Made by a program: the position numbers and the translations under genes
NCBI GenBank assembly: GCA_963708295.1
Contig: CAVPSJ010000008.1
Span: 64,001 to 128,000, forward strand
Length of the DNA stretch: 64,000 bases
Reading direction: 5' to 3'
Origin: an uncultured delta proteobacterium
Lineage (GTDB): Bacteria; Desulfobacterota; BSN033; UBA1163
Shown here: in pieces, positions 8,717 through 50,144 of the stretch
How the letters are laid out: the number at the start of each line of letters is the position of its first letter
How positions within the stretch are numbered: the stretch's first letter is position 1
The notes under the pieces: generated by a model
Told to the model about the DNA's origin: nothing
The model's database searches: none
What the model saw: the letters and a program-made list of their open reading frames with translations, nothing else

Positions 8717-8727
8717 AAACTTCTCCA

Positions 8728-10289: not shown

Positions 10290-10312
10290 TTGAAATCCTC
10301 ATCAAGTGTTAC

Positions 10313-10471
10313 AAAATCCGAAATCCGAATATCGGGCGAAGCGTCCGCCTCGGACCAATCCGGAACAAACTCTAAAATCAAATTTCAAAATCCTAAACCG
10401 TTCCTGTCTCGGTCATTTAGATTTTGGTCATTCGTATTTGTTTCGCAATTCGAATTTCGTGCTTCGAATTT
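10313..10471. repeat. Heptamer-periodic inverted-repeat element, copy 2, with GC-rich insert at 10334-10356
   Basis: AAAATCC GAAATCC GAATATC ... TAAAC / ... GGTCATT CGTATTT GTTTC GCAATTC GAATTTC GTGCTTC GAATTT. Confidence 0.8.
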
Positions 10472-10500
10472 ATTCTCAGGATGGAGTTGAAACCGCTCGA

Positions 10501-10974: not shown

Positions 10975-11720
10975 CTGGCTTTCTCCCCCCCTCGCGCCCC
11001 TTTCTTCGAAGAAACATTCATCTCCAAAAAAAGATTGGCGAGAACAAGATCTTCAGGGGTAGTGATTTTGATGTTCGCATAAGACCCTGTAAGGATATGG
11101 ACCTTTCCTCCCAGCCGTTCGACCAGAGAGGCGTCATCCGTCCCAACAAACCCGTCCTCTATGGCCCGAGCGTGAGCCTCCCTGATCACATTGACGTGAA
11201 AGGTTTGGGGGGTCTGAATCTGCCATAGGGATTCCCGATCCAGTGTTTTCAGGACTGTTCCGTCCGGGTTGGACATCTTGATGGTTTCTTTCACCGGCAT
11301 GGCGAAGACCACTGCTCCGTATCGGACAGCGGAGTGAATCGAATCCTCGATCATGGTCTGGGTGACGAGGGGGCGGACACCGTCGTGAATCGCCACAATA
11401 TCCCCGTCTTTGGGAAGAGCATCGATTCCATTTTTTACAGACTCCTGCCTCCGCTTTCCACCCGGAACAATCTGAGACACCTTTTGGAATCCATATTTTT
11501 CAACGATTTCCTTCAAGCAGTAGTCCATGTCTTCTTCACCAACCACCAGGCGAACGGAACGGATCAAAGAGCAGGCTTCGAATTTAGCCAGGGTATGGGC
11601 AAGAATAGGCTTTCCTCCCAGGAAGGTGAATTGTTTCTTCCCCTGGTTGGGTTTGGTCGACTTCCCTTCCATGAAACGAAGCCCCTTCCCTGCGGAGACA
11701 ATCACTGCGTCAGCCTTCAT
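10971..11720 (-). CDS. ispD: 2-C-methyl-D-erythritol 4-phosphate cytidylyltransferase
   Basis: [47 protein letters not shown]. Confidence 0.96.
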
Positions 11721-11739
11721 CGTTCAGCCATAAGATAAA

Positions 11740-11790
11740 GAATAATGGAAGAGTGGGAAGAGTGGGTTCAAAACCTTCCCACTCTTCCAC
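11740..11790. repeat. Short periodic-repeat hairpin between yacL-like gene and ispD
   Basis: GGAAGAGTG GGAAGAGTG GG ... CTTCCCACTCTTCCA. Confidence 0.6.
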
Positions 11791-11799
11791 CTGAAAGAC

Positions 11800-12852
11800 T
11801 TAGAACTCGCTGTCCAGGGGATAATAGTAGTCTTTCCCCTTGTTTTCCCGACCGGCCTCTTCTTTGAGACGGGCGAAGATCATTCTCCCTGCGGGTGTCT
11901 GGAGGACGCTGGTCACGACAACATCAATGGTCTTGCCCATATGTCTTCTGCCGTTATCGACCACAATCATCGTCCCGTCGTCCAGATAGGCGACCCCCTG
12001 TCCCACTTCCTTCCCTTCCTTAAGAATTTTAACGTTAATTTCCTCTCCGGGAAGGACCACGGGTTTTATGGAATTGGCTAACTCATTGATGTTCAAGACC
12101 TGGATCCCCTGGAGTTCCGCCACTTTGTTCAGGTTAGAGTCATTGGTGACGATCTTTCCCCGAACCTCTTTAGCCAATTCAATCAGTTTTGAATCGACCT
12201 CTTTGATTGCAGGAAAATCGTTGTCGACGATTCGAACATCGACAATCGCCTGCTTTTGGATGTGATGAAGAACTTCTAAGCCCCTCTTGCCCCTCGTCCG
12301 TTTGATGGAGTCCGAGGAGTCGGCGATATGTTGCAGCTCGTTCAGGACGAATTGCGGAATGATCAACGTTCCCTCCACAAAACCCGTTTCCGTGATGTCG
12401 GCGATTCGACCGTCGATGATCACACTCGTATCCAAAATCTTCGAGTTTTCACTTTGGGGAGCATTTTTTGAGAAGAGTTTCCAGCCGGACAGGTGAATAT
12501 CTTCTCCCTTTTTGAAACCGATGAGTAGACCCATATATCCACAAATCCCGTAGAGGATGCTTAGAAGCGGAAGGATCATTTGTTGATGATTGTATAAATT
12601 GGCGAAAAAGACGTTAGACAGGAGATTGGCCACCATGATGCCGAGGATCAATCCGATGAAACTTCCTAAGAGGTTCTTTAAAGGGATCTGCTTTAACCCT
12701 TTCTCGATCAAAAGGGTCAAGGCTGCAAGGAATAGTCCGCCGATCATCCCCAGAAGAGGCATGGGGGGGGAAAGAGAGACTTCCCGGGTCAAGGTATACC
12801 CGCTGATTCCGCAGATGAGGAATAATAAGATACGAAGAATCCATGAGCCCAA
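11800..12852 (-). CDS. PIN/TRAM domain membrane protein (YacL family)
   Basis: AAAGGAGG then TTG at 12852; N-terminal TMs; KILDTSVIIDGRI, RGKRGLEVL, TND.NLNKVA, GKE..QGVAYLDDGTMIVV, QT.AGRMIFA. Confidence 0.92.
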   Translation of the reverse strand: MGSWILRILLFLICGISGYTLTREVSLSPPMPLLGMIGGLFLAALTLLIEKGLKQIPLKNLLGSFIGLILGIMVANLLSNVFFANLYNHQQMILPLLSILYGICGYMGLLIGFKKGEDIHLSGWKLFSKNAPQSENSKILDTSVIIDGRIADITETGFVEGTLIIPQFVLNELQHIADSSDSIKRTRGKRGLEVLHHIQKQAIVDVRIVDNDFPAIKEVDSKLIELAKEVRGKIVTNDSNLNKVAELQGIQVLNINELANSIKPVVLPGEEINVKILKEGKEVGQGVAYLDDGTMIVVDNGRRHMGKTIDVVVTSVLQTPAGRMIFARLKEEAGRENKGKDYYYPLDSEF

Positions 12853-12933
12853 CGCGCTCACCTCCTTTCCATGGGTGGATGATATGAAAAGACATTCCAA
12901 TAAAAACGAGTGGTAGGGAATCTGGAGAGGTCA

Positions 12934-13413
12934 TTATCCGAAGATTGAGTTGATCTCTCTCAAAATATCCGTCTCTTTTACGTCCCGCGCGATGGCCAGT
13001 TCCTTGACCAGAAGATTTTTGGCCGTATCCATAATTTTCCTCTCACCGAAGGAGAGTTCTTTCTCCTCTCTGAGGAGATGGAGGTCACGAAGCACTTCCG
13101 CAATGCCGTAGATCGACCCCGTGTTGATTTTTTCCATATACTCGCGGTATCTCCGATTCCAGGTCTGATTATCAATGGTGACATCCCTGGCCTTCAGGAT
13201 CCCGATGACCTTCCGGACATCAATCTTCCGGATCACCCCCCGCAACTTGGCCGCCTCCACATTATCCTGGGGAATCATGATGGTCATTCCGTTTTCTAAA
13301 ATTTTGAGGATGAAAAAAATCTGCTCTTTACCAGAAATTCGCTTGGTCTCGATGGATTCAATGACTCCAACGCCGTGGCCGGGGTAAACCGCTTTATCAC
13401 CGATCTGGAACAT
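12934..13413 (-). CDS. carD: CarD/CdnL family RNA polymerase-binding regulator
   Basis: FQIGDKAVYPGHGVGVI, WNRRYREYMEKI.TGS, LSFGERK; usual position upstream of ispD/ispF. Confidence 0.93.
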   Translation of the reverse strand: MFQIGDKAVYPGHGVGVIESIETKRISGKEQIFFILKILENGMTIMIPQDNVEAAKLRGVIRKIDVRKVIGILKARDVTIDNQTWNRRYREYMEKINTGSIYGIAEVLRDLHLLREEKELSFGERKIMDTAKNLLVKELAIARDVKETDILREINSIFG

Positions 13414-13568
13414 AATCTTAAAACCTCCTTCCTGGAAGTAAGAAAAAGAGCAATTTCAATTTGGAACCAAACGATATCAAGACAAAGGGAAATACGCCCG
13501 ATAGAAAAACTGTTCAAGACGGCTAACTCCGTTCTTTACCGACCAAGGAGAGAAGCCGTGTAAGGAAT

Positions 13569-14711
13569 TCAGGTTCCTTGACTTTTGGCCAATTTCAAAA
13601 TGTCATCTACATCGGGGTTTTTCCCTTGGATCAACCTGCCCATGGAGGCATCAATTCCAAAGAAGGCCGAAATTCGAATCTTGCCCTTCACCTCGGCGTG
13701 TTCGCCAGACCCGCCGGGCCGAAACACTTCCATCACATCTCCCACCTGAAGGCCCGTTAATCTCCCGGCGTTCAGGTAGACCTGCTCACCCTCTACCTTG
13801 GCGATCCGACAAAACCAATCCATGCCATCTAATTCCTTGGCCAGGGAGCGCCCCAGGTTAGCCAGGGTGACATCAATCGCCTTGATTTTGGCCTTCTCTT
13901 CGGAAAAGGATCCTTTTTCCTTGGCCGCAATGATGGGATTATTGGCGGACAAGTTCTTAAGGGTTTTACCCGTCAAGGTGTCCATCAGCCGCATGTCAAT
14001 GTTGATAATCGCCGAGGCCGCCGCTTCCCGTTCTTTCGTTGTCTTGGTGGTGAAGACATAGGGGCCGGAGAGTTCCCCTGCGACGAGGGCATGAGCTCCG
14101 AAAACTTCGTTGAGGTATAGGAGACTTTTAGACTTTTCAAGGTCCTTCAGGTCGAATCCCTTTTTTTCATAAAACTCTTTGACCATTTGATAGTCGACAA
14201 ACAGGACCTGTAGTGTCCTTCGGTTTACCTCTTTCATCAGCTTTTCGGCCACCCAGTCTCCGAACACCTCTTCGCCCTGAGTGGTTCGATCATCGAAATA
14301 AGTGATTAACACCTTCTTCTTCAAGCGTGGAGGCGCCGATTTCGACGGAGATACCGCGAGCGTCTCTTCCTCTAATAATACGGAGGACGGTCTTGTCGGA
14401 GTAGAAGCGGACTCCTTCCTGACCGCTTCGGTCCCCGTGGTCGTGGCCGCGTTGAAACTCTCTTTATGGGAAAGGTATTCTTGAACAGGAACATAGAGGT
14501 ATTTGGGCTGGTCCTTTCCGTCAGAGTCTTTAGGGTTTAAAACCTTCACGTACTCTTCCTTATCGATAATGACCACTTCTTTATCGAGCAATTCTTTCAT
14601 TTTTGCCTTACGAGAGGAAAACCAGGAAGATGTAGAACACCCGAGAACGAGAAGCAGGAGAAGGAGAAAAATAAGGATGAAAGGGCGAGGGGAATTTTCT
14701 CTTAAGTTCAT
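13569..14711 (-). CDS. Lipoprotein with FlgT-like middle and C-terminal domains
   Basis: Lipobox VLGC after hydrophobic stretch; C-terminal W.CRIAKVEGEQVYLNAG..TGLQVGD. Confidence 0.6.
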   Translation of the reverse strand: MNLRENSPRPFILIFLLLLLLVLGCSTSSWFSSRKAKMKELLDKEVVIIDKEEYVKVLNPKDSDGKDQPKYLYVPVQEYLSHKESFNAATTTGTEAVRKESASTPTRPSSVLLEEETLAVSPSKSAPPRLKKKVLITYFDDRTTQGEEVFGDWVAEKLMKEVNRRTLQVLFVDYQMVKEFYEKKGFDLKDLEKSKSLLYLNEVFGAHALVAGELSGPYVFTTKTTKEREAAASAIINIDMRLMDTLTGKTLKNLSANNPIIAAKEKGSFSEEKAKIKAIDVTLANLGRSLAKELDGMDWFCRIAKVEGEQVYLNAGRLTGLQVGDVMEVFRPGGSGEHAEVKGKIRISAFFGIDASMGRLIQGKNPDVDDILKLAKSQGT

Positions 14712-30366: not shown

Positions 30367-31157
30367 ATGACGGAGGGTTTTTCCCGGGACTCCATGATGG
30401 CTGGGAACCCGGCGGAAAAGGTCCCCAAAAGGGCACCGGAGGCAATTCAGCAAGTGGTGATGGCGAACAGGATCCTGAGCAATGAGGGCATCCTCGATGC
30501 CCTCGGGCATGTGAGCGTGAGGAACCCAGTGAACGCAGCACCTTCTTTCAGGCGCGCTCCATTTCTCCTTTCGAAGTCACCCCGGAGGATATCCTGGAGA
30601 TCGACCTCGACGGGGATGTCGTCACTCAGACGACGATGAAACCTTACGGAGAGCGCATCATCCATGGGGCGATTCTCAAAGCCCGTCCCGAAATGAATGC
30701 TGTCTTTCATGGCCATTTCGCTGCCGTCATACCGTTTTCGGTCACGAACACCCCTATCCGTCCGATCACCCATGTGGGAAGTTTCCTCTATCAGGGAGTC
30801 CCGATTTACGACGATTACGAACCGGATGGAGGCATGCTGATCAGGACGAAGCAAGAAGGAGAGCGAATCGCCAGGCATCTCGGCCAGCACAGGGTCCATC
30901 TGCTTCGCGGGCATGGATGTAATATCGTTGCCGAGAACCTTCCGCGGCTCGTTGCCTCTGCCATCCACCTGAGGGAAAATGCGACCATTCAGTGGCAGAC
31001 GCTTCTGAGCGGCAAGGAGGCGAAATACCTTTCCCCTGAAGAAGCGGAAGCGGCCATGGAAATCGCCCTCTTTGGCGCCAGCCCGATCGACCGGATGTGG
31101 CGGTACTGGGTCGCAAGGGTGAAGAGGAACATGCCCGATATGAAAGATTGGAAATAA
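30367..31157 (+). CDS. Class II aldolase/adducin-family protein (decarboxylase-like); one frameshift near 30540
   Basis: AAGGAGG SD; ANRIL..EGILDALGHVSVR continues in another frame to ERIIHGAILKARP..NAVFHGH and LLRGHG. Confidence 0.82.
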
Positions 31158-32505: not shown

Positions 32506-34546
32506 ATGTTAGAGACTGCGCAGTCGTTTCTTCTCGGTTTGACGCAGATCTTTACGGTGACGACCTTCGGGCTCATGCTCTTCGGTATCGCGATCGGTTT
32601 TGCGGTCGGGATCCTGCCGGGACTGGGAGGACCGACGGCGATGGCACTGATGCTGCCCTTCGTCGTGAAGATGACCCCGGTCGAAGCCTTCGCGTTCCTG
32701 CTCGGTATGGCCTGCGTCGTCAACACGACCGGAGACATCACGTCCGTGCTGTTCGGCATTCCGGGTGAGCCGACGACTGCCGCCACCATTGTGGACGGCC
32801 ATCCGATGGCGAAAAAGGGCGAGGCCGGCCGCGCCCTCGGCGCAGTCCTGATGGCCGCGCTGATCGGCTCCATCTTCGGCGCCTTTATGCTTGCGATCGC
32901 CGTTCCCATCGTGCGGCCCCTCGTGCTCTCCTTCGGATCACCCGAGTTCTTCATGCTCGCTCTTCTCGGCATCACGTTCGTGGCATCGCTGAGCGGCGCC
33001 GACGTCATCAAGGGTCTCTATCTCGGGAGGATTGGGCCTTTTTGTTGCGACGGTGGGCCTCGACCCTGTCTCCGGCATTCAGCGCTTCACCTTCGGCCAG
33101 ACGTTCCTGTGGGACGGCATCGGGCTGGTGCCGATCACCATCGGTTTTTTCGCGATCCCGGAGATCATCGATCTTGCGGTGACGGGTTCGAGCATCGCCG
33201 GCGGACGGACCGGAGCGCTGGGCGGGGTCAAGGAGGGCATCCGCGACGTATTCCGTCACATCTGGCTCGTTCTCCGCTGCGCGGCTATCGGCACGTTCTG
33301 CGCGATCATACCCGGCATGGGAGGCGCGACGACCCAGTGGCTTTCTTACGCCCACGCCGTCCAGAGCTCTCCCGACAAGGAGCGCTTCGGCAAAGGGGCC
33401 ATCGAAGGGGTGCTGGGTCCGGGGGCGTCCAACAACTCGACGCTCGGTGGCAGCCTGATCACGACCATCTCTTTCGGGATTCCGGCCAGCGTCTTCATGG
33501 CGATTCTCATCGGGGCCTTCATCATGCACGGCGTCGTCCCCGGCCCGGACATGCTCCGGCCGGAATCGCAGGGAGGACACCTCGGCCTCACTTACTCCTT
33601 CGTCTGGATCGTGGTCATCTCGAACCTCATCACCGTGGGCATGATCTTTCTCCTCCTGAAACAGATCGTCAAGGTGACGTACATACGCGGCAGCCTGCTC
33701 ATCCCCTTCATCCTGATGCTCATCTACCTCGGCGCCTTCGCCGAGAAGAATGCCTTCCCGGATCTGATTCTGGTCCTGATCTTCGGCGGACTGGGCTGGG
33801 TACTGGAAAAGCTCAAATGGCCGCGACCGCCCTTGATCCTCGGGCTGGTGCTCGGAGGACTGGCGGAGAGCAGGCTCTTTCTTTCCGTGGGCAATTATGG
33901 CTTGAGCTGGATCTGGCGTCCCATGGTCCTTGTGCTCATCGCGGTCACCCTGTTCGGCGCCCTTTACTCCGTTCTTAAAGGAAGGAAGGAGAAGAGAAGA
34001 CATCGGATGGTGGAAGCCGTTGAGAGTGGTTCAGGGGCCAGGGTGAGGGCAAAGGGCGACGATCAACAAGTGGTCAGCGATTTTTGCTCTTGGCCTCGTC
34101 GATCATCCTTGCCCTTGCGCTCTGGCAGAGCAGGAACTTCAACGTCCGGGCCGGACTCTTTCCCTGGGCGATCGGTTTCCCGCTCCTTGGACTTTTGCTC
34201 CTGCAATTCGTCCGAGAGCTCATGGGCAAAGCCGGTGTTCGGTCGCGGGGACGATACCGTCGAAGAGGAGGACCAGGGGGTGCCCGCTGATGTGGCGAAC
34301 CGCCGGACGAGAAACATGTTCGGCTGGATTATCGTCTACTTCCTGGCTATCTGGCTCCTCGGCTTCACCATAGGGGCCACCCTGTGCTGTTTCATCCAGC
34401 TCAAATTTGCATCCAAGGAGAAGTGGCTGATCACCCTGATCCTGACTGCGGGTCTTTGGGCCTTCGTCTACCTGTTGTTTGACCGCACGCTCCACGTGCC
34501 ATTCCCGGCGGGATATCTCTTTGAGGTACTGGGGATGGCGGAATAA
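32506..34546 (+). CDS. tctA: TctA permease with C-terminal TctB-like module (probable fusion); frameshifts near 33020, 34085 and 34240
   Basis: GILPGLGG, IPGEP...DGHPMAKKGEAGRAL, FGKGAIEGV..P.ASNN, LILGLVLG; TctB-like AGLFPWAIG and WLLGF...LFDRTLHVPFP. Confidence 0.85.
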
Positions 34547-38140: not shown

Positions 38141-38599
38141 TTGGTTGAGGAGAGGATTAAGGACGCGACAAAGATTCTGAATCTTCTAAGGTCCATGGCG
38201 GGCTACAAACCCCATTTTGAGATCCTCGGAAATTACCGTCTGATTGACGATGGCGTCCGACCCGAGGCGACCATTATGCTCCGGGCCAACGGGAAGGAGA
38301 TGCACGAGGCAGAGACAGGGGTGGGGCCGGTCGATGCCCTCGCGAAGGTGTTGAAGAAATCGTTGAAATCGATTTTCCCTGAGATTGATCAGGTGAAACT
38401 GATCGACTTCAGCTCCAGAATCTTCGACCCAGGGGCTGGAACCGCAGCAGGAGTGGAGGTCGAGATTTTGTTCAGCAACAGTCAGGACGCATGGAGAGTG
38501 AAGGCTTTTTCAGAGAATATTAATAAGGCCTCTTTTCTGGCGTTAGTGGATGGGTTTGAGTATGGAATCTATGTCTCAAGAGAGAAGAAGGACGGGTAA
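38141..38599 (+). CDS. Stand-alone LeuA/CimA-type allosteric (dimerisation) domain
   Basis: EATI.L...G...HEAETGVGPVDAL...L.K.L..IFPEI..VKL.DF, GTAA.V, SENI.KAS..ALVDG.EY; no TIM-barrel catalytic domain. Confidence 0.8.
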   Translation: MVEERIKDATKILNLLRSMAGYKPHFEILGNYRLIDDGVRPEATIMLRANGKEMHEAETGVGPVDALAKVLKKSLKSIFPEIDQVKLIDFSSRIFDPGAGTAAGVEVEILFSNSQDAWRVKAFSENINKASFLALVDGFEYGIYVSREKKDG

Positions 38600-38602
38600 C
38601 GC

Positions 38603-38735
38603 AATTTCAAATGTCAAAATCCCTGCCTTCGCCGAAGCGGCTTCGCGCAGGCAGGCAAATGCCAAATTAGATCCAAAGCCCCCAAATGACAAGCAAACCA
38701 AATTTCTTGAACTTTAAACTTTGACATCTGGCATT
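38603..38735. repeat. Heptamer-periodic inverted-repeat element, copy 4, with palindromic insert at 38622-38655
   Basis: AATTTC AAATGTC AAAATC[CCTGCCTTCGCCGAAGCGGCTTCGCGCAGGCAGG]C AAATGCC ... CTTTAAA CTTTGAC ATCTGGC ATT. Confidence 0.75.
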
Positions 38736-38759
38736 CGGCCAAATAATCGGAGGAATAGG

Positions 38760-38936
38760 ATGGATCGTAAGAGCATAGAGGAGGCCATTAAGGAAAAGGC
38801 CAAGGATGGAAAACTTCCTTGTGCCGTGTGCTTCAAAATAGCTGAAGAATTTGGCATTTCGAATAAGGAAATGGGAAAGATCCTGAATGAGATGAAGGTT
38901 AAAATCGGCCACTGTCAGTTGGGCTGCTTTGAATGA
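38760..38936 (+). CDS. Small Cys-containing protein (58 aa)
   Basis: GGAGG SD; DGKLPCAVCFKIAEEFG...GKILNE.KVKI.HCQLGCF. Confidence 0.75.
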   Translation: MDRKSIEEAIKEKAKDGKLPCAVCFKIAEEFGISNKEMGKILNEMKVKIGHCQLGCFE

Positions 38937-38945
38937 TTTTTCTGC

Positions 38946-39002
38946 TTGACATGGGTAATCATTTGAATATAATGATCGGGACTTAGAATGAATAATTCAC
39001 TC
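38946..39002 (+). promoter_or_regulatory. Sigma-70 promoter and palindromic operator of the cstA operon
   Basis: TTGACA-N16-TATAAT (38946-38973); GAATGAAT-A-ATTCACTC near-perfect palindrome (38986-39002). Confidence 0.65.
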
Positions 39003-39108
39003 AGAGCAAAAATAAAAGGAGGTGAATGGTTCATTATTGAAGCGAAAAGGGTGGGGGGAATTCATTACTATCTCGTAGGTGATTTTATCACCACAAGGAG
39101 GTAACATT

Positions 39109-40794
39109 ATGAATTCAGTTGTTGTTTTGATCATCGGGTTTCTCGTTTTTTTCATCGGTTATCGTTTCTATTCGAAGTACGTTGATACGAAAATTGTTAA
39201 ATCTGACCCGAAGAGGGCCACTCCGGCCAAGATGTATATGGATGGAGTCGAATTCATGCCCACCAGCAAGAACATCCTCTTCGGCTACCAGTTCAAATCG
39301 ATTGCTGGCGCAGCCCCGGTGATCGGACCCATCCTTGCGATCCAATGGGGATGGCTCCCTTGTTTGTTATGGCTCTGCCTTGGCGCGTTGTTCATTGGAT
39401 GGGTTCATGATTACTCGAGCGCTGTCGTAGCCATGCGAAATGAAGGAGCTTCCTTCGGGGGGTTGAGTTACAAATTAATCTCGCCGAGAGCTCGGGTTAT
39501 TCTCCTCTCCTTTATCTATTTCTTTCTGCTTCTCATCGCCGGCGCCTTTGGAGCGATCGTTGTCAACGCAGCCACCGGGCAGAAAAGTGCTCCCATGGCC
39601 TGGCTCCTTCTCACCATCGGTGGCGTTCTTGCTGGACAGATGATCTATCGATGGAAGAAAGACATCGTTCTGACTACCATTATCTGTGTCGTTATTGCGT
39701 TGCTGGGGATCTATCTTGGAACAGTTGCTCCTTCTAACAGTATCCTTGGAAGTGCAATTGCCGGCGACAAATATGTATGGGGCATTGTTGCGCTTGTCTT
39801 CTGCTACTTCGCTGCGGTCTTACCGATCTGGAGATTTGCCCTTCCCATTAACTATGTCGCCTCCTATATCGTTTTCCTCGGTCTCTTATTCGGGATCATT
39901 GGAGTATTTGTCCTCCATCCCGATTTTACACTGCCTGCTTATACAGGTTTCAATATCAAAATCGGACCTCTCTGGCCGATCCTGTTTGTGACGATCGCTT
40001 GCGGAGCAATCTCTGGATGGCACAGTATCGTTTCCAGTTCGGGAACAGCCAGGCAATTAGAGTTCGAACCGGATGCCCGTCCAGTAGGGGGCGGTGTGAT
40101 GTTTGTGGAAATGATGCTGGGTTTGTTCGCCCTGGTCATTGCCGGAACGATTTTTGCTTCGCCTTCCGAATATTCAGCAGCGATAGTAAAAGGGCCCATT
40201 CCCGTATTCGCAGCGGGAGTGTCCAAATTCTTAGGTGCGTTGGGGATGCCTGCTGCAATAGGAAGTTCCTACGGCGCAGTCATGTTAATCATCCTGGCAG
40301 TCACCATCCTTCAACTGGTTATCCGGTTTATGCGAGTGGCCACATCAGAGATTTTGGGGGATATTAGCCCCATCTTTAAGAATGTCCATGTCGGAACCAC
40401 TATCGCCAGCGTTCTCACACTGCTCCTGATCTGGACAGGATGGTGGCAATATCTCTGGGTCCTTTTTGGAGGAGCCAACCAGTTGATGGCCTCCCTGGCT
40501 CTGATGCTGATGACCCTGTGGTTGATGTCGCAGGGGAAATCCTACAAATGGACCTTTTACCCGATGATTTTTATGTTTGTTACGACAATCGCCGCCCTGG
40601 TGGTTACCTCTTATAGACTTTTCACCGCTGTGTTTACAGGTGCGGTGAAGGGAGAGGCGTATGTCGGGAACATACTGATGGGCTTGGTTGGGATCTTCCT
40701 CATCATTGCTGCACTCATTCTGGGAGCGGAAGGATTAAAGGCTTTTGGTCGTTATAAGGCTGTAAGGGCGGAAGGAGCCCCTGCCAAAGCATGA
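39109..40794 (+). CDS. cstA: Carbon starvation protein A family transporter
   Basis: TPA..YMDGVEF.PT, F.SIAGAAP..GPI.A..WGWLP, ITIACGAISG-like VTIACGAISGWHS, W.LFGGANQL.A; many TMs. Confidence 0.93.
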   Translation: MNSVVVLIIGFLVFFIGYRFYSKYVDTKIVKSDPKRATPAKMYMDGVEFMPTSKNILFGYQFKSIAGAAPVIGPILAIQWGWLPCLLWLCLGALFIGWVHDYSSAVVAMRNEGASFGGLSYKLISPRARVILLSFIYFFLLLIAGAFGAIVVNAATGQKSAPMAWLLLTIGGVLAGQMIYRWKKDIVLTTIICVVIALLGIYLGTVAPSNSILGSAIAGDKYVWGIVALVFCYFAAVLPIWRFALPINYVASYIVFLGLLFGIIGVFVLHPDFTLPAYTGFNIKIGPLWPILFVTIACGAISGWHSIVSSSGTARQLEFEPDARPVGGGVMFVEMMLGLFALVIAGTIFASPSEYSAAIVKGPIPVFAAGVSKFLGALGMPAAIGSSYGAVMLIILAVTILQLVIRFMRVATSEILGDISPIFKNVHVGTTIASVLTLLLIWTGWWQYLWVLFGGANQLMASLALMLMTLWLMSQGKSYKWTFYPMIFMFVTTIAALVVTSYRLFTAVFTGAVKGEAYVGNILMGLVGIFLIIAALILGAEGLKAFGRYKAVRAEGAPAKA

Positions 40795-40845
40795 GTTTTA
40801 GGCCCCGGGAGTAGGAGGAGGCGACTCCCCAATTCCAAGTGAATA

Positions 40846-40941
40846 CCCTCCCGCTGGATGCCTGCCTGCCGGTAGGGCGGGTGAGGGTGGCTTTCAAATC
40901 CCCCCATCCCCCCTTTTTCTAAAGGGGGGTGAGGGGGGATT
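40846..40941. repeat. REP-like palindrome cluster inside the cstA operon
   Basis: CCCTCCC...[GCCTGCCTGCCGGTAGG]GCGGGTGAGGGTG, then AATCCCCCC ATCCCCCCTTT-ttct-AAAGGGGGGT GAGGGGGGATT. Confidence 0.7.
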
Positions 40942-40968
40942 AATTTTTTCATAAGGAGAGATTTCTTT

Positions 40969-41241
40969 ATGGCAAAAGAGGAGAAGAAGAAAGGGGGGCT
41001 TCTGCAAGCGGTTAGAGAGTTTGTTTACGGGGTGGCGGCTCACGATTCAGCACGATTTGCTATGAAGACAAGGGCGAGCATGGAGCATCTCTTCATCCTC
41101 ATCACTATGGGAGATATGCTGGGTGTTCCAATCCTGCCACCTTACTACTCCCTGCGGCTATTACCTTATGTGGTTCCTCAGATCTCCACCTGGAAACGGA
41201 GGATGCTGAGGGAAAAAGATTTTACGGATGCGCTGGCCTAA
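40969..41241 (+). CDS. Small CstA/ArsA-associated protein (90 aa)
   Basis: AAGGAG SD; hydrophobic Pro-rich core LFILITMGDMLGVPILPPYYSLRLLPYVVP followed by WKRR. Confidence 0.8.
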   Translation: MAKEEKKKGGLLQAVREFVYGVAAHDSARFAMKTRASMEHLFILITMGDMLGVPILPPYYSLRLLPYVVPQISTWKRRMLREKDFTDALA

Positions 41242-41247
41242 GAAGGC

Positions 41248-41375
41248 AAATTCGAGATTCGAAATCCGAAGCACGAAACAAATTCAAATTTCGAAATATC
41301 GAAGACGGTTTAGATCATTTGAATTCTAGCCGACTGAGTTTGTTTCGGGTTTCGAGATTCGATATTCGGATTTTT
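41248..41375. repeat. Heptamer-periodic inverted-repeat element, copy 5
   Basis: AAATTC GAGATTC GAAATCC GAAGCAC GAAAC AAATTC AAATTTC ... GAGTTT GTTTC GGGTTTC GAGATTC GATATTC GGATTT. Confidence 0.8.
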
Positions 41376-41392
41376 AGTTTTTAAAGAAAGGG

Positions 41393-42374
41393 GTGATTGA
41401 CATTCCATTAGCTGACATATTTGATAAATTTCCGGATCGACGATACATCATGTTTGGCGGAAAAGGAGGACTTGGGAAAACCACCTTTTCAGCAGCGACA
41501 GCCTATTATTTGGCCAAAAAAGGGAAAAAGGTCCTGGTCTTTTCTGTTGACCCGCAGGCCTCGCTTACCGATATCTTCAAAAAGGATATTTTCGGAAAGG
41601 GGCCCACGGAGATCATGCCCAACCTTTATGCCCAGGAGATCGATGCCGACCGCCGGGTAAAGGAATATCAACAGGAAATTCGGCGTAAGATTCTGGACAT
41701 GTACGGAATGGAAAAGATTCCCGGAGGAGATTGAGAGTTACATCCAGGCTGCGGCGGCCGAACCCGCCATGGAAGAAAGCGCCATTTTTGATGAGGTGGT
41801 GGATATTGTCATCAAGGGCGGCTACGACTACTATATTTATGACCTGGTTCCGTTGGGTCATGCCCTTTACTATCTCAGCATGGCCTCCGTCTACGATGCC
41901 TGGATCAGTAAGATTACGGGCCTCCGGGAGCAGATGCGAGAATATGATCAGGCGGCGGCGGTGATGAAGCGGGAGAAAGAGTTGGATGAAGATGCGATCT
42001 TGAACGAACTGCTGTACATTAAAGATCGTATCAACAAGTCCTCAAGCATCCTGACCGATAAGCAGAAGACAGCCTTCTTTTTTGTTTTGACGGCCGAGGA
42101 GATGATCATCAAGGACACTTTAAAAGCAGCGGAACTTTTTGCCAAATTTGATGTTCCCTTGAGCGGTTACATCATCAACCGGGTCTTGCCTGTCGGTTTG
42201 GCGAGCCAGAATATTCCAGAATATTTGAAAAACCGTCTGACCATGCAGGAACATTATCTGAAGGTGATTGATACGACCTTTGGAAAAGAGATTATGGCAT
42301 CCGTTCCTGAAATGGAGCGAGATGTGACCGGTCTACCCATGATCGAAAAGATGGCGAAGGCCATGTTTGGATGA
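41393..42374 (+). CDS. ArsA/Get3(TRC40)-family ATPase 1; one frameshift near 41725
   Basis: GGKGGLGKTT, SVDPQASL, EID, PAMEES, DLVPLGH, IINRVLP; no Cys. Confidence 0.88.
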
Positions 42375-42428
42375 ATCGGCGGATCACTGAAAGTTGAACG
42401 CTTAAAACTGGATACAAGGAGCACTCAC

Positions 42429-43413
42429 GTGAATCAAATAACGACCAGCATGGAAAAATTCATGAGGGAGCACCCCCGGTTGAAGTATATCTTTTTTGGG
42501 GGGAAGGGAGGGGTCGGAAAAACCGTTATGGCGGGGGCAGCTGCGTTGTGGTCGGCCAAACAAGGAAGAAAGACACTGCTCGCCTCGACCAACCCGGTTC
42601 ATAGCCTTTCCACCCTGTTAGAAAAGGATGTCTTTGGAAAAGCGGCCGTCGTCTGCAACGAAGACAAGTGTTACGCCTTTGAAATTGACACGCGAGATAC
42701 GATCGAACGCTCAAAACAAGAAATCCGTGAAAAGATCAATTGGTTTCTCAAATTTGCGGACATCACGACGAAGGCAGAAGATTTTATCGAATCCGCCACC
42801 ATGAATCCTGCCTTTGAAGAGTCGGCTATGTTTGAAAATATGGTGGATCTCATGTTCAAGGATGAATATGATTTTTACGTCTTCGATACTGCTCCTACAG
42901 CGAATGCAAGACGCTTGCTCGGGATGTCGAAGGTCTATTCCCTCTGGGTGGAGAAGATGCTGAAGAGTCGGGAGGAAGCGAAATCGCTAAGAGAGATACT
43001 TTCCTTCTCGAAAAAAGAAAAAAAAGGATCCCCTCCTGGACTACCTCCTAAGTTTCAAGGATCGAATGTCCCATGCGAAAGACCTCCTGACCGATGAGGC
43101 CCTCACCGCTTTCTTTTTTGTCACCCTCCCCGAAAGCCTCCCGATCGCTGTCATCACCCGCTTCATCAACTGGTTCCACGAATTTGGCATTCCCGTCGGC
43201 GGTGTGGTCGTCAATGGAGTCATCCAGAAGGATCAAGTGGGAAAAGATGCTGCCGAGTTCGTCCGCAACCGAGTCCAGATGCAAGATGAACATATGGGAG
43301 AGATCTGGAAGATATTCGGAGACAGGGTGAGGGCAATCGTTCCCCTTTTTGAAACGGAGGTGAAGGGGGCGAAGATGCTAAATCGAACGGTTGAACATCT
43401 TTTTACGCCCTGA
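42429..43413 (+). CDS. ArsA/Get3(TRC40)-family ATPase 2; one frameshift in the A-run at 43011-43025
   Basis: GGKGGVGKTV, STNPVHSL, EID, PAFEES, DTAPTAN, FFFVTLPESL, VVVNGV, EVKG. Confidence 0.88.
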
Positions 43414-43606
43414 TCCCATCAGGATTTCGACCAAAAATAATTCCTCTTCCGCTCACACATTGCTGCCTTTCCTCATCAAAACCTCGGACTTTTTTGTTCA
43501 CATGCTGAACTATTTTCATATCTAAACGAATCTTCTAGCTCCGAGGTAACTGACTAATCCTTTGAAATCATAAGTAGTTTTCGATTCTTAGCCTATTTAT
43601 GAAAAT

Positions 43607-43622
43607 TGGCATAAGAATTGCT
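43607..43622 (+). promoter_or_regulatory. Sigma-54 promoter
   Basis: TGGCAT-AAGAA-TTGCT; inverted repeat GTTCA-N5-TGAAC about 100 bp upstream may be an enhancer site. Confidence 0.7.
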
Positions 43623-43664
43623 GAGTTATAAGATAGTGTTATTACTTTGCTTTTAGGAGGAATA

Positions 43665-44423
43665 ATGTTAGGTCTGCTCCAGTTATTGCTCGCCGTCATT
43701 GCGATCTACGGCGCCCTCAAATTCTCTGAAGATCTGAAACTTGTCGTTCCTCTGGGATGTCTGATCGCCATGTTTGTCGTGAGCAGAATTGAAAAAGGAA
43801 ATTCCGAAAAGAAGATCTCAAGGAAGAATTTCTTGCAATCAGAAATGGACAAGGTCTCGAAGAAGGAGTCTATGGCAATTAAAGATCAGGATTATTCGAC
43901 CGTTGAGTCACTTCTGTGGCCCAAAAGTGAACTGCTCTTAATCGATACCGTTCATTCCATCTTCAAGGACTTGGGGTTCAGGATTTCTACCGGGATTAAC
44001 TACCAATCCGTGGATCGCATCATGAAGATCCCGGAAACCCGGATGGTCTTTGGAGTACAGGTTCTGATCAGTGAAGGAGAAGTAGAGGGAAACCATCCCA
44101 AAATCAATCGGGCCTTACAGTTTGATAAAGAGAAGAGGGAGAATGAGAAATCCCTGATTATTGCGGCCACTCATATTCGTCTCCCCCTTTCTGAAATGGG
44201 CCAAGTGCCCCATCTCTCCAAAGAGCTGAGCCATTTCTTAAGTCGGCACAATATGAGTTTGATTACCACCCGCCACCTTTACGAACTTTGGCAGAAGGCC
44301 AGGGGGGGGGAGATTGATATTCTTGGTTTTTTTGAGCACGTCTATTCTCACTCCAATGGGGCCGCACTATTAAACGGGGCTGTAAATTCTCACTCACCCA
44401 TGTCGAACCTGCCCGTCCAGTAG
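43665..44423 (+). CDS. Hypothetical protein with two N-terminal TM helices
   Basis: AGGAGG SD; hydrophobic N-terminus, soluble alpha/beta C-terminal domain. Confidence 0.7.
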   Translation: MLGLLQLLLAVIAIYGALKFSEDLKLVVPLGCLIAMFVVSRIEKGNSEKKISRKNFLQSEMDKVSKKESMAIKDQDYSTVESLLWPKSELLLIDTVHSIFKDLGFRISTGINYQSVDRIMKIPETRMVFGVQVLISEGEVEGNHPKINRALQFDKEKRENEKSLIIAATHIRLPLSEMGQVPHLSKELSHFLSRHNMSLITTRHLYELWQKARGGEIDILGFFEHVYSHSNGAALLNGAVNSHSPMSNLPVQ

Positions 44424-44595: not shown

Positions 44596-45360
44596 ATGGA
44601 AGTGATGAAAGTCAAAGAGATCTTCGCCAAGACCGTTCTGACCAAGACAGCCATCTCCGGTTTTGATTACTGTATCAACCCTTATGTCGGGTGTGGACAT
44701 GGTTGCCGGTACTGTTATGCCAGCTTCATGAAGCGTTTCACCGGTCATCTGGAGCCCTGGGGGGAGTTCATCGATGTGAAGGTCAATGCCCCTGTTCTGC
44801 TGAAGAAGCAGTTAAAGCGAGCGAAGCAAGGGTTGGTGGCCCTCAGTACGGTGACCGACCCCTATCAGCCGGTCGAGAAAAAATATCAACTGACTCGAAA
44901 ATGTTTAGAAGCCCTTCTGGAAGCTGAATTTTCTGTCAATCTCCTGACCCGGTCACCTCTTTGCATGAGAGATATTGATTTGTTGAAGCAGTTTGGAAAT
45001 ATTGAAGTAGGCTTCTCTATTGCGACTCATGATGAGGGGATCAAGAAGCTTTTTGAGCCCCATTCTCCTTCGATCGACTCCCGGGTGAAAGCTCTGCGAG
45101 CCCTCCATCGAGAAAAGATTCGGACTTACGCTTTTGTCGGTCCGATGCTTCCTTTGGACCCGAAGCCGCTTGTGGCGATGCTGGAAGGGGTGATTGATGA
45201 GGTTTTGATCGATCGAATGAATTACCCGAATAAGGTGAAAGCGATTTATCGCAAAGCCAAACTGGATCGGTATTTGGAAGAAAGCTATTTTCATCTGGTC
45301 GGAATCGAGTTGAAGGAGCGTTTTGAAGAAAAAGGAATTCCTGTTTCGATGATATTTTAG
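44596..45360 (+). CDS. Radical SAM protein, SplB-like (DNA repair photolyase) family
   Basis: INPYVGCGHGCRYCYA, VKVNAP, STVTDPYQP.E..Y.LTR, FEP. Confidence 0.88.
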   Translation: MEVMKVKEIFAKTVLTKTAISGFDYCINPYVGCGHGCRYCYASFMKRFTGHLEPWGEFIDVKVNAPVLLKKQLKRAKQGLVALSTVTDPYQPVEKKYQLTRKCLEALLEAEFSVNLLTRSPLCMRDIDLLKQFGNIEVGFSIATHDEGIKKLFEPHSPSIDSRVKALRALHREKIRTYAFVGPMLPLDPKPLVAMLEGVIDEVLIDRMNYPNKVKAIYRKAKLDRYLEESYFHLVGIELKERFEEKGIPVSMIF

Positions 45361-45361
45361 G

Positions 45362-45501
45362 AAAGTGACTAAAATTCAAAATGGGCGAAAGTGAACTAAA
45401 GTGACTAAAGTGAAAAGTGACTAAAGTTAAGAGATCGGAAAAACTTCAACTTCATTTGAATTCAACTCTAGGCATTTTAGGCACTTCTAACTTTAGGCAC
45501 T
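45362..45501. repeat. Nonamer-periodic inverted-repeat element
   Basis: AAAGTGACT repeated on the left arm, AGGCA(C/T)TT / CTTTAGGCAC on the right arm. Confidence 0.75.
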
Positions 45502-45516
45502 CAATGGAGGTATTCT

Positions 45517-46440
45517 ATGACCCTCGGTAGATTCGGATTGAGAAGAAGAGAATATGATTTTCCACCCTTCCGGCCGCCCAGCGAGGCGAACAGTCTCCTT
45601 CTGAGAGTGACCCGGGGATGTCCGTGGAACCGATGTACCTTCTGCTCAATGTACAAAGGGACGAAGTTCGAGATCAGACCCGTCGAGGAAGTCCTGGGAG
45701 ATATCGAATCCGCAAGAGATCTTTATGGGGATAGAGTCAGGACCGTTTTTATCGGAGACTCCAATAGCCTTGTGGTGAAAACCGAAATGCTGGTCAAAAT
45801 TATGAACGCCCTTCTTTCATCCTTCCCTCACGTCGAACGGGTGACCAGTTATGCCCGAGCCAAGACCATTGCCAAGAAACCCCTGGAGGATTTAATAAGA
45901 ATTCGGGAAGCGGGCTTAAACCGGCTTCACGTAGGTCTTGAAACCGGAGACCGTGATCTTCTCAAGGAGATTGCGAAGGGGGCGACCCCGGAAGAGATGG
46001 TCGAGGCGGGAAGAAAAGCGAAGGAAGCCGGGTTTGAATATTCTCTCTATGTCTTGCTGGGGATTGGCGGTGAGGAAAAATGGGAACAGCATGCCAAAGG
46101 GACGGCTGAGGTGTTAAATCAAATCGATCCCCATTTCATCCGTGTTCGAACCTTTATCCCCCAACCCAATTCTTCGGTTTATGATGCTATTACAGAAGGC
46201 CGTTTTCAACCGCCCCGGCCGGAAACGATACTAAAGGAAACAAAACTGCTTTTGGAGAAGCTTCAGGTGACTTCCCAGTTCTTAAGCGACCATATTTCTA
46301 ACCTTCTTCCCCTCCACGGAAAGCTTCCCGAAGATAAGGGGAAAATGATTCAGATGATCGAAGAGGTCCTCAAAGGGTTGAAAGAAAATGATGGGTTGAG
46401 AGAAGAGATGGAGATGAGAAGACACCTCACCAATCTGTAA
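45517..46440 (+). CDS. Radical SAM protein of unknown function
   Basis: RPPSEA.SLLL.VT.GCPWNRCTFCSMYK, F.GD.N, GLETG, SDH.SN. Confidence 0.88.
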   Translation: MTLGRFGLRRREYDFPPFRPPSEANSLLLRVTRGCPWNRCTFCSMYKGTKFEIRPVEEVLGDIESARDLYGDRVRTVFIGDSNSLVVKTEMLVKIMNALLSSFPHVERVTSYARAKTIAKKPLEDLIRIREAGLNRLHVGLETGDRDLLKEIAKGATPEEMVEAGRKAKEAGFEYSLYVLLGIGGEEKWEQHAKGTAEVLNQIDPHFIRVRTFIPQPNSSVYDAITEGRFQPPRPETILKETKLLLEKLQVTSQFLSDHISNLLPLHGKLPEDKGKMIQMIEEVLKGLKENDGLREEMEMRRHLTNL

Positions 46441-46552: not shown

Positions 46553-47071
46553 TTAGTCTTTATCGAGATTGTTGATTTCTGATTGAAAGACAGTATGAGG
46601 AGCCGTTTCTGCCTTTTGGTTTCTGATATATTCTTGAACGACTTCAGCTGTAATTCCATCTGCGACACTAGCAATGTAATAGCCCGCTGCCCAAAACGTT
46701 CCCTCTTTCCAGATGTGTTGTTGAATAACGTCGAGGAATTCTTCCCTGATCTTTCTTGAGGATATACTTTTTAAAATCTGAACAATCCTCATAGGTGTGT
46801 CTGTAGGTCGTGCCTCAATCAACATATGAACGTGGTCAGGCATCACTTCATGAGCGATGATCTTGAACCCGTACTCATAGGCAATGTCGGCTAAGATGCG
46901 TTTTAACCGGACCGCCAAATTACCAATTAGAAAGCTTCGACGGTATTTTGTTATCCAGACAAGATGATATTTCAAGTTGTATCTTGAGTGCGAGCCTGAC
47001 CTCGTATTGTCTTGATAGAAATAATCCAAGACTGCTTTTAATGTCTCTTGTCGTTTTGTTTCTTCATACAT
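46553..47071 (-). mobile_element. tnpA: IS200/IS605-family Y1 transposase, no adjacent tnpB
   Basis: Y.LKYHLVW.TKYRR, MPDHVH (HUH), LKS.SSR, FW..GYY..SV, EYI.NQ catalytic Tyr; element ends not resolved. Confidence 0.92.
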
Positions 47072-47476
47072 GTTCTTTTGCCTTTCAGGGGAGCTTTCGG
47101 AAGGGGTGTTTCAAATACTGATTATAGAAAGTAATCTAGAGCTTTCATAGCCAGCTGTCAATCAACGACTTCAGAAAGAAACATTGCATCTCTTCCCCTC
47201 GTTTGCCCAAGAAATGGGCAGTCAGACCGGCAACGGATTAACAGGAGATACCCCAAAGAATGAAGATTTCTTTTGAAAGTCATTGGATCGTTTCTTCTTC
47301 CACCCATGCAGACGAACTTCCCACAAAATGTTTCCTGAAGACTTCATCCCGAAATTAGCAGAGGTCTCTCGGAAAATAAGAGGAATCCCAATTATGAGAG
47401 ACAGGCCCTTCGGTCTAATAAAAAGGTGAAAGACAGGATGGAAAACTTAATCGCAATCCCCTGTCTCACTACTTGG

Positions 47477-47740
47477 CTAATTTAGCTTGTGGCAGATCAG
47501 GCATTGTTCCTTCGGTGGGTGTTTAGTAGGTAAAGGGATAGCCTGAGAGTTGTGGCAGGTTATGCAGCCTCTTTCAACCTCAATCCTGTCCCCGCCTTTC
47601 TTCATGGCCTCATGAAAGGCTCGGTGCTTCTTGTCAGCAGGTACTCGCTTGGCTTTTTCATGGCCAGTAATCATAATGAGCACAACGATCACGACCGCAA
47701 CAGCTGCAATTGTTAACAAGTCTCTCTTGGTCACCTTCAT
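47477..47740 (-). CDS. Small membrane-anchored diheme cytochrome c
   Basis: N-terminal TM; CITCH and CLICH heme motifs; extra His as possible distal ligands. Confidence 0.85.
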   Translation of the reverse strand: MKVTKRDLLTIAAVAVVIVVLIMITGHEKAKRVPADKKHRAFHEAMKKGGDRIEVERGCITCHNSQAIPLPTKHPPKEQCLICHKLN

Positions 47741-47896
47741 GAAATCACCCTGCTTTTACTGTCCAGCCTCAGAGAAACGGTTTTTTCAAATTCGATAGCT
47801 TGACCTCATCCTTTGGACAGACTCGTAGCGCAATTACACCTATCAATCCGTAAGGTGAGCTAATCTGAGCGTTGATGATTACCGATGGAAATAAAC

Positions 47897-49110: not shown

Positions 49111-49401
49111 TTACGTGTCCCGATCTTCCCGGAGGAATTCCTGAGCCACGCCCTCGCGTGCAGGAAACTGCGGCGGTAATCGCATTGCCCTTCCTTTCCG
49201 CACCGGTCCAAGCAGACCTTGCTCCTCCATTTTCTTGATTCGCTCGGCCAGCGAGAAATGATCTTTCGGCACCGGCACAATTTTCCCCACCGGTTTACCC
49301 CGATCAGTAATAATAACTTCCTGAACTTGCGTCACCATTTTTAATAGCTTACTTAGATTGATTTTTGCCTCTCTAACGCCAACACTAATCATCTTCGTCA
49401 T
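49111..49401 (-). CDS. Phd/YefM-family antitoxin, no toxin gene downstream
   Basis: VGVREAK.NLSKLL..V...EVIITDRGKPV..IVP. Confidence 0.85.
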   Translation of the reverse strand: MTKMISVGVREAKINLSKLLKMVTQVQEVIITDRGKPVGKIVPVPKDHFSLAERIKKMEEQGLLGPVRKGRAMRLPPQFPAREGVAQEFLREDRDT

Positions 49402-49413
49402 CCGTAATATAGT

Positions 49414-49481
49414 TCAAATAGTTCCGATCTCTTTGGGGATTTCCACCAGCATCTTCGTTCCGAATCTCACACATTTTCTAA
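49414..49481 (-). pseudogene. Diverged duplicate of the 3' end of the M20 peptidase gene
   Basis: 49438-49469 matches 50247-50278 at 30 of 32 nt; reads RFGTKMLVEIPKEIGTI* versus RFGTKMLVEIIKEVAT*. Confidence 0.85.
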
Positions 49482-49903
49482 GGACTGACTATGTCTACTT
49501 CTTCTGCATCCCTAAAATGCTTTTTATCGAATGTATAGATTTTCTTAGCGCCTTTGACTTTTGCAAATTCAATGATCCAGCCATCGATCAGGTCAATTTT
49601 CTTGCTGTGATAGAGTTTCAGGGCTGCCTTTATCACCGGTTTGTCTTGGGTGTCAATCCCGGGTGTGTTAAGGATAGCCTCGACCAACCCCGTGATATCA
49701 TCCGCTGTCATTTTATAAAAACTCTCTAAAACCCAGACAAGCTCTGCAATGACAATTGAAGGAATCAATATCTTTATCTCCCCTTTTCGAGCGCTGTTCA
49801 AAAGGGAATCGACCGCTTTCGCCTTTTGCGGTTCGTCATCCGTCAAATAGCGAACAAGAAGATTCGTATCAATCACAACGTCTTCTTTGTTATTTTCTAA
49901 CAC
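49478..49903 (-). CDS. vapC: PIN-domain toxin (VapC-like)
   Basis: IDTNLLVRYL..D, VIAELVWVLES, DLID, IYTFDKKHF; overlaps the antitoxin stop. Confidence 0.88.
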   Translation of the reverse strand: MLENNKEDVVIDTNLLVRYLTDDEPQKAKAVDSLLNSARKGEIKILIPSIVIAELVWVLESFYKMTADDITGLVEAILNTPGIDTQDKPVIKAALKLYHSKKIDLIDGWIIEFAKVKGAKKIYTFDKKHFRDAEEVDIVSP

Positions 49904-50144
49904 GGCCTAATTTATCCCCAAGATGTTTTTTTGCCACATTCCTCATGACATCAAAGTCTGCGGGTGCTCTTTTTCCTTTTAGGAATCCCTTGAATTCGCG
50001 AAGTGTTTTAGCCGTTCTTACGATGACCTTATCATCTTCTTTTTCAAAAACGACCACCGCTCCTGTATCGACCTTGAGAAGCCTTCTGACTTCCTTGGGC
50101 AATGTAATTTGGCCCTTTGATGTGATCTTAGCGGTTAATGCCAT
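49890..50144 (-). CDS. AbrB/MazE/SpoVT-family antitoxin (VapB-like)
   Basis: AKITSKGQITLPKEVR..L....G..V.F. Confidence 0.9.
   Translation of the reverse strand: MALTAKITSKGQITLPKEVRRLLKVDTGAVVVFEKEDDKVIVRTAKTLREFKGFLKGKRAPADFDVMRNVAKKHLGDKLGRVRK

Follow-up and report, generated by a model that had tools for sequence, protein, structure and literature searches.

The CstA family of carriers has been linked genomically to ATPases of the ArsA/Get3 class since the survey of Castillo and Saier (2010, Int J Microbiol, PMC2963123). The excerpts of that paper drawn on here report cstA beside ArsA homologs in 26 genomes and a ~90-residue protein, CstX, in 24. The cstA-linked ATPases are described there as single-domain proteins of ~330 residues with adjacent pairs in two organisms; the trees of CstA, CstX and the ATPases co-vary, the conserved switch I Asp "can be substituted only by N", the cysteines of ArsA are absent, and arsenic genes are never in operons with cstA genes. 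It was proposed that the ATPase energizes CstA via CstX. The 64,000-nucleotide stretch analyzed here (the window) comes from an uncultured delta proteobacterium (assembly GCA_963708295.1, contig CAVPSJ010000008.1, positions 64,001 to 128,000) and carries, between 38946 and 43413, another copy of this known cstA-cstX-(cstY)-arsA-homolog module, of the kind that includes adjacent ATPase pairs. A first-pass annotation of the window had cited the linkage of cstA and arsA, and this linkage is in print in the 2010 excerpts.

The four genes of the locus, cstA, cstX, ATPase 1 and ATPase 2, are all on the forward strand. cstA (39079..40794) is a 571-residue open reading frame (ORF) assigned to the CstA family by Pfam (PF02554, E 2.4e-138) and is the only cstA in the genome; since its orthologs are of 559-563 residues and align from residue 11, the start is probably the ATG at 39109, giving a protein of 561 residues. 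It scores 191.8 bits against NCBIfam NF011590, far below the cut-off of 1188, and is therefore not the equivalog of E. coli CstA. A sequence search of the Protein Data Bank (PDB) gave no structure for the CstA family. cstX (40969..41241) encodes 90 residues of the DUF7990 family (PF25952). The two ATPase genes each lie in two frames, ATPase 1 in 41393..41734 and 41769..42374 (overall 41393..42374, ~328 residues if intact) and ATPase 2 in 42429..43097 and 43066..43413 (overall 42429..43413, ~330 residues if intact). The likeness to the 2010 module extends to the adjacent and co-oriented cstA, the ~90-residue cstX placed before the ATPases, the ~330-residue single-domain ATPases and the lack of ars genes, although no CstY was recognized in the window, unlike some operons of the 2010 module. 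That CstA, the 90-residue protein and two single-domain ArsA/Get3 ATPases form one apparent operon, as first annotated, is borne out by the ORFs, by Pfam and NCBIfam and by the recurrence of the gene order in related loci. Taken alone the window is an ordinary result, one more copy of the module with two probable assembly errors. The modest additions reported here are the division of Asp and Asn between the two ATPases, the DUF7990 identity and predicted hairpin of CstX, a clade of single ATPases that keep Asp, and orphan CstX paralogs. The excerpts of Castillo and Saier do not state which member of a pair has Asp and which Asn, or a heterodimer, and no literature search was aimed at this assignment.

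Both ATPases are of the Get3/ArsA type. The pieces of ATPase 1 cover positions 2-90 and 107-303 of the Pfam ArsA_ATPase profile (PF02374) and those of ATPase 2 positions 2-169 and 196-303, and NCBIfam TIGR00345 (TRC40/GET3/ArsA) agrees. ATPase 1 has the deviant Walker A motif GGKGGLGKT and ATPase 2 the form GGKGGVGKT, with both lysines invariant in both proteins. The switch motifs differ, and all of those listed in the first-pass annotation are present in the translations: ATPase 1 keeps the switch I Asp in SVDPQ, has DLVPLGH as switch II and has Cys in neither piece; ATPase 2 has Asn at the switch I position (STNPVH) and DTAPTAN as switch II. The closest solved structures are those of archaeal Get3, 3ug6 and 3zq6, at E 4e-55 and 1e-53 for ATPase 1 and 3e-52 and 4e-52 for ATPase 2, and ArsA structures match both ATPases at ~1e-28 to 1e-31, behind archaeal Get3 (~1e-52 to 1e-55).

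The asymmetry is a fixed feature of the module. A scan for the small protein over one genome per species gave 458 confirmed relatives among 599 matched stretches, and the best 80 loci were kept, mostly from Thermodesulfobacteriota with some from records labelled Nitrospirota, Aminicenantes, Spirochaetes and Candidatus Hakubella. In 80 loci ATPase 1 comes next after cstX, in 75 ATPase 2 comes next after ATPase 1, with a median gap of 23 nt between the ATPase genes, and in 66 cstA stands ahead of cstX; at least some of the loci outside these 66 are cut by contig ends. Flanking genes are common to only 13-15 of 91 loci, so that the four genes constitute a conserved unit. The ATPase orthologs are single-domain proteins of 325-330 residues. 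Among 72 intact copies of ATPase 1, SVDPQ is found in all 70 with a recognized P-loop and YDLVPLGH in all 72; among 72 intact copies of ATPase 2, STNPV occurs in 68 of 69 and STNPI in the other, with FDTAPTAN in 71 of 72. When the alignments were thinned to sequences below 90% identity and four divergent operons were included, switch I Asp remained in 34/34 ATPase 1 and Asn in 41/41 ATPase 2 proteins, a survey of neighborhoods that upholds the D/N asymmetry proposed from the window alone; the final Asn of DTAPTAN is kept in 40/41. Even the most divergent operon (L096), with ATPases 44-45% identical to those of the window, retains STDPQAS and SLNPVHS. The Asn of ATPase 2, fixed across loci as distant as this one, is therefore not a sequencing error.

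ATPase 1 and ATPase 2 are old paralogs with complementary motifs. In a maximum-likelihood tree from a quick search (the careful search was unfinished, and there were flags on long branches), each of three types, ATPase 1, ATPase 2 and a single-ATPase type, is separated from the rest by a branch with support of 97-99, and the ATPase 1 and ATPase 2 subtrees show mirrored branching order. Two clades that branch in mirror image fit an obligate asymmetric heterodimer. The single-ATPase type belongs to a second architecture, found among twenty regions around weaker matches to the small protein: in 7/7 distant loci cstA is followed by a cstX-like gene (~30% identity) and then by one ATPase of 300-424 residues. 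This single ATPase keeps Asp (S[IL]DPAHN) in all seven loci and has DTPPTGL in five. A lone ATPase with Asp, set against a pair in which one Asp is lost, fits a duplication followed by division of labor. A Syntrophobacter record (L065) contains two complete cstA-cstX-ATPase 1-ATPase 2 operons in tandem (5254-9376 and 9895-14040), the second of which encodes proteins 58-75% identical to those of the window and also has Asn (STNPIHG).

Membership of both ATPases in the ArsA/Get3 family by Pfam and NCBIfam, and the label "arsenite-transporting ATPase" that one data source gives to a fused relative, are what might suggest an arsenite/antimonite pump ATPase split into two genes. Against this, ArsA equivalog models score 16-83 bits with cut-offs of 650 (TIGR04291) and 800; ATPase 1 is free of Cys in 68/72 orthologs, and the two cysteines of ATPase 2 are found in only 30/41 and 34/41. 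Pfam searches of all larger ORFs between 35.7 and 47.1 kb found none of the arsB, acr3, arsC, arsD or arsR families, in keeping with what had been annotated from the sequence, and the excerpted 2010 survey reports no operons that join arsenic genes to cstA. Arsenic resistance, doubted from the start, is very unlikely: there are no ars genes near, ATPase 1 lacks Cys, and the Cys residues of ATPase 2 are not invariant.

The small protein has both a name and a Pfam family, which the first-pass annotation overlooked. The protein atlas assigns its relatives to DUF7990, while the window protein itself found no match in the copy of Pfam searched; these relatives number 5629 at 90% clustering, the best 120 being 82-98% identical to the window protein, and fall into 390 clusters at 50% identity. 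CstX matches NCBIfam NF041419, "cory-CC-star protein", over positions 20-71 of 80 with 37 bits (36.4 in the genome search; E 2.6e-9), below the 80-bit cut-off, so that it is a relative and not a member. Neither the NF041419 nor the DUF7990 entry assigns a function, and a literature search on the CstX/DUF7990 family found only Castillo and Saier (PMC2963123). The family core is GD..G.P.LPPYYSLRLLPY, in which G48, G52 and P66 are invariant among 48 diverse sequences. AlphaFold2 predicts a two-helix hairpin (helices 10-51 and 58-89; mean pLDDT 76.5, pTM 0.37) with the hydrophobic Pro-rich motif, which includes a 16-residue hydrophobic stretch, at its tip. The "hydrophobic Pro-rich core" first ascribed to this protein is thus present as a motif, with the amendment that the model places it at the turn of a hairpin, which is not a classical tail anchor. 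A Foldseek search of the model against PDB gave no match at E <= 0.001, as expected for a bare hairpin. The small protein is present in 65/401 sampled genomes of the phylum; the family, and usually the module with it, is common, and a function for it has been hypothesized since 2010.

Many operons (L042, L061, L076, L078, L085, L088 and L107-L110) have, in addition to the main cstX, a further and more divergent copy next to it, mostly between cstA and cstX, and natural tandem CstX-CstX fusions occur, e.g. P0269 (180 residues). Records labelled Spirochaetes, Thermodesulfovibrionales, Aminicenantes, Nitrospirota and Candidatus Hakubella (L051, L053, L054, L079 and L080) contain CstX 84-92% identical to that of the window; such identity across phylum labels suggests that the module has moved between phyla, that constraint is unusually strong, or that the records are misbinned.

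Dimers of the ATPase class that includes Get3, MinD and NifH have their two ATP sites at the interface. The reading that we favor, though tentatively, is that ATPase 1 and ATPase 2 form an obligate heterodimer with one working site that drives or gates CstA through CstX. Both proteins keep GGKGGxGKT and would pair as a Get3-like heterodimer, in which the site built on ATPase 1, with its switch I Asp, would hydrolyze ATP, and the site built on ATPase 2, because of its Asn, should bind ATP but barely hydrolyze it and so would act as a latch. The ATP-driven closing and opening of the dimer would be relayed to CstA by CstX, whose hairpin would have its hydrophobic tip in the membrane or in a groove. 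ATP would thereby drive or gate CstA, much as ArsA drives ArsB, a step suggested by gene linkage only. The substrate is presumably a small carbon compound, e.g. pyruvate or peptides, as for other CstA proteins. A pair of ATPases that drives or gates CstA would explain carbon scavenging by energy-poor anaerobes and would provide a natural and conserved Get3-type dimer with one dead ATP site. Structure prediction of the two ATPases and two ATP together with CstX gave 0.48, 0.22 and 0.19 in separate runs, values on both sides of the mark of 0.32 that are counted neither for nor against such a complex.

Fused proteins bear on the proposed contact between CstX and the ATPases. Among longer DUF7990 proteins 6/41 also carry PF02374 and 0/41 the CstA family, and P0277 (414 residues) reads as a clean fusion in which CstX is joined to the N-terminus of ATPase 1; the fusions give weak support to a CstX-ATPase contact. 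The predicted fold of P0277 (pTM 0.74) has pLDDT of 29-72 in the CstX part and no confident docking, from an unpaired alignment in which the last ~12 CstX residues are misplaced in many rows.

Several observations weigh against an ATP-driven or ATP-gated CstA. E. coli CstA and BtsT are proton symporters that work without an ATPase. The CstX-ATPase fusions are all single-member clusters, at least two of which (P0292 and P0299) contain out-of-frame text, and they may be gene-calling artefacts. In sequence the ATPases are nearer to archaeal Get3 than to ArsA, which favors a role of chaperone type. In 8 loci, one of them in the source genome, an orphan CstX paralog (40-52% identical) has no cstA or ATPase gene anywhere near it, and DUF7990 is therefore not strictly tied to CstA. 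Among five genomes in which the sole CstX match is of this weaker, orphan type, searched for CstA and Get3/ArsA, two that are 97% complete (G354 and G289) gave no CstA match, and a closed genome (G419) has its cstA ~1.9 Mb from the orphan and no Get3/ArsA match beyond the P-loop. The occurrence of CstX in genomes with no CstA match is at odds with the 2010 survey, which states that CstX is always accompanied by CstA.

As to the orphans themselves, the one in the source genome (G000:C13:288157-288393; L095:8116-8412) is 47% identical to the CstX of the window and has no cstA or Get3-like gene near it, its neighbors including a flavin reductase, an NMT1-like protein and an amidohydrolase. No neighbor is common to the seven orphan loci scanned. 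One orphan lies between FeoB and ZnuC/ZnuB-like genes (L098:5240-9138) and another is next to NikR and ZnuA (L104:259-1863), and metal genes at two of seven loci are too few for a pattern.

The kinship with Get3 raises the alternative, rather unlikely in our judgment, that the heterodimer is a Get3-style chaperone whose groove captures a hydrophobic segment, either the CstX tip or newly made helices of CstA, and passes it on to the membrane; in that case the ATPases would assist assembly of the carrier and have no part in its transport cycle. To our knowledge the Get3 homodimers have no catalytically dead subunit, which counts against such a chaperone. A dedicated two-ATPase chaperone in one-to-one ratio with a single small client would also be unusual. 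The 16-residue hydrophobic stretch at the hairpin tip could be a client segment, and the existence of CstX-ATPase 1 fusions would accord with capture of CstX, yet the stretch is in the middle of the protein and is followed by ~33 mostly charged residues, so that CstX is not tail-anchored, and it is predicted as part of a continuous hairpin rather than as a membrane-spanning helix. In favor of a chaperone, the best solved matches, 3ug6 and 3zq6, are archaeal Get3 proteins aligned over the full length, helical insert included, at ~40% identity, and a 2019 review (PMC6593721), in the part drawn on here, places uncharacterized bacterial single-domain homologs that lack CxxC beside the archaeal Get3 proteins that bind tail-anchored proteins.

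A narrower form of the favored carrier reading can be drawn from the same likeness. Coiled-coil hairpins of Get1/WRB serve Get3, and the free-standing CstX hairpin may be likened to them. On this more speculative view, which we consider unlikely, a prokaryotic Get3-like heterodimer would find its receptor on the membrane side in CstX, a one-site ATP switch would open and close CstA through this receptor, and the Asn subunit, serving permanently as an ATP latch, would give the cycle its direction.

The two ATPase genes of the window are each interrupted by a single extra base. In ATPase 1 this is at 41720, where CC has become CCC before GGAGG (ATTCCCGGA vs ATT-CCGGA), and in ATPase 2 it is at ~43018-43026, where A8 is followed by GG instead of G, the extra base being G or A; both are absent from 8/8 closest loci, and the orthologs of both ATPases are intact in 72 loci. 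Programmed frameshifting was rejected, since the orthologs read straight through both sites. Each frameshift is probably an assembly error. The pieces of the ATPases are 90-94% identical in protein sequence to the nearest ortholog, as conserved as CstA (89%) and CstX (93%), and have no further stops or indels; both insertions are in short runs, a usual spot for consensus errors, and the source genome is an assembly of 20 contigs (4.9 Mb). Contigs from public metagenomes (runs X1-X4) were also consulted; these are short, come from mixed relatives rather than from the source reads, and each run has at most 30% of the sampled words. All contigs that cover 41720 are without the extra base (two in X2, one in X3), and at the second site the base is missing in the single X3 contig (the 1641-nt record 24) and in three X4 contigs. 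The closest of these contigs, X3 records 17 and 24 at ~97-98% identity, are without both extra bases.

The less probable but quite possible alternative is a recent and real break, in which this strain would have two genuinely inactive ATPase genes and the module would be decaying with cstA and cstX left intact. The loss of one subunit of an obligate pair would free the other to decay. At the second site neither X1 nor X2 has any contig that lacks the base, at summed depths of ~390-930. rpoB, rpoC and secA (~11 kb) are intact, and seven neighboring genes of the syntenic block are full length, so that two breaks within 2 kb are more than a uniform error rate predicts. Weighing the other way is an unrelated gene that is split in a similar sequence context, the TctA-family transporter gene at 32506-34543 (+), the third frameshifted gene in the window: profile positions 3-157 are matched in ORF 32506-33978 and 152-423 in the overlapping ORF 32993-34543, and the break is near 33020 in CTCGGGAGGATTGGG, a GGGAGG context. 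A class II aldolase ORF (30558-31157, +) matches positions 38-183 only of its profile, and a histidine phosphatase ORF (3225-3689, +) positions 1-77 of 194; these may be further truncated or frameshifted genes.

Several noncoding features accompany the operon. Upstream of cstA is a promoter-like site on the forward strand (38946..38973), TTGACA and TATAAT with a 16-nt spacer, which matches the sigma-70 consensus at 12/12 positions and is the sole 12/12 match among 7 promoter-like sites within 38500-43800; a near-consensus site is found 5' of cstA in 13/63 related loci with sufficient upstream DNA. Between cstA and cstX is a G/C-rich hairpin (40897..40941, +) with 21-nt arms and a 3-nt loop, followed by AATTTTTT, which may be an attenuator, a terminator or an RNA-stabilizing stem. 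The spacer between cstX and ATPase 1 contains a long imperfect inverted repeat (41248..41373, +) with 39-nt arms that are 74% complementary.

The neighbors of the module within 35.7-47.1 kb are an M24 peptidase, a 2-hydroxyacid dehydrogenase, a LeuA_dimer protein, two radical SAM proteins and an IS200-type transposase. 3' of ATPase 2 is a 258-residue ORF (43647-44423, +) that has a pair of hydrophobic segments at its N-terminal end and matches no Pfam family; it is downstream in 14/91 related loci, and its matches in the protein atlas are unnamed Thermodesulfobacteriota clusters only. The two radical SAM genes (44596-46440, +) have synteny limited to the closest 13-14 loci, and the IS200-type Y1 transposase gene (46553-47071, -; PF01797, E 8e-38) lies immediately downstream of the syntenic block. 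Beyond it a 290-nt stretch (window 47167-47751) has two further copies elsewhere in the genome at 85-86% identity, and at 49114-49906 (-) a Phd/YefM antitoxin ORF adjoins a PIN-domain ORF, which together look like a type II toxin-antitoxin pair.

In comparison with known systems, the window ATPases share with archaeal Get3 (3ug6 from Methanocaldococcus jannaschii and 3zq6 from Methanothermobacter) the P-loop, the switches and the helical insert. STDPAH of Get3 aligns with SVDPQA of ATPase 1 and STNPVH of ATPase 2, and DTAPTGH with DLVPLGH and DTAPTAN, respectively. However, the homodimer of Get3 has Asp at each of its sites, whereas here there are two distinct paralogs, one with Asn in every member of the thinned alignment, and the CxxC zinc motif of the dimer interface (CDFC in 3ug6) has no Cys counterpart in either window ATPase. 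We know of no link of the mycobacterial proteins BagA and BagB to CstA or CstX. BagA and BagB (Rv3679-Rv3680 of Mycobacterium tuberculosis) are the products of two adjacent Get3-like ATPase genes that have been co-crystallized (6bs3 chains A and B), and their function is, in the part of the source used, unrelated to arsenic (PMC10597346). The window ATPases match 6bs3 weakly and mostly within the P-loop (E 6e-9 to 2e-5), and they do not reach the cut-offs of the NCBIfam models for BagA and BagB (NF053622 and NF053621), the best scores being 35.5 bits vs 400 and 31.8 vs 521.

ArsA and ArsB are a known case of an ATPase of this family coupled to a secondary carrier. ArsA is one chain of ~580 residues with two fused halves, has metalloid-binding Cys and is encoded in ars operons, whereas at the window locus there are two genes (~328 and ~330 residues) whose products have no conserved Cys, the carrier is an unrelated one, and ars genes are lacking within 35.7-47.1 kb. 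The halves of ArsA are unequal, and the two unequal subunits at the window locus may be likened to them. If CstX does act as the membrane-side receptor of such a heterodimer, CstA with its two ATPases would be a second class of secondary carrier coupled to an ATPase, evolved independently of ArsAB and found in many anaerobic bacteria and in archaea.

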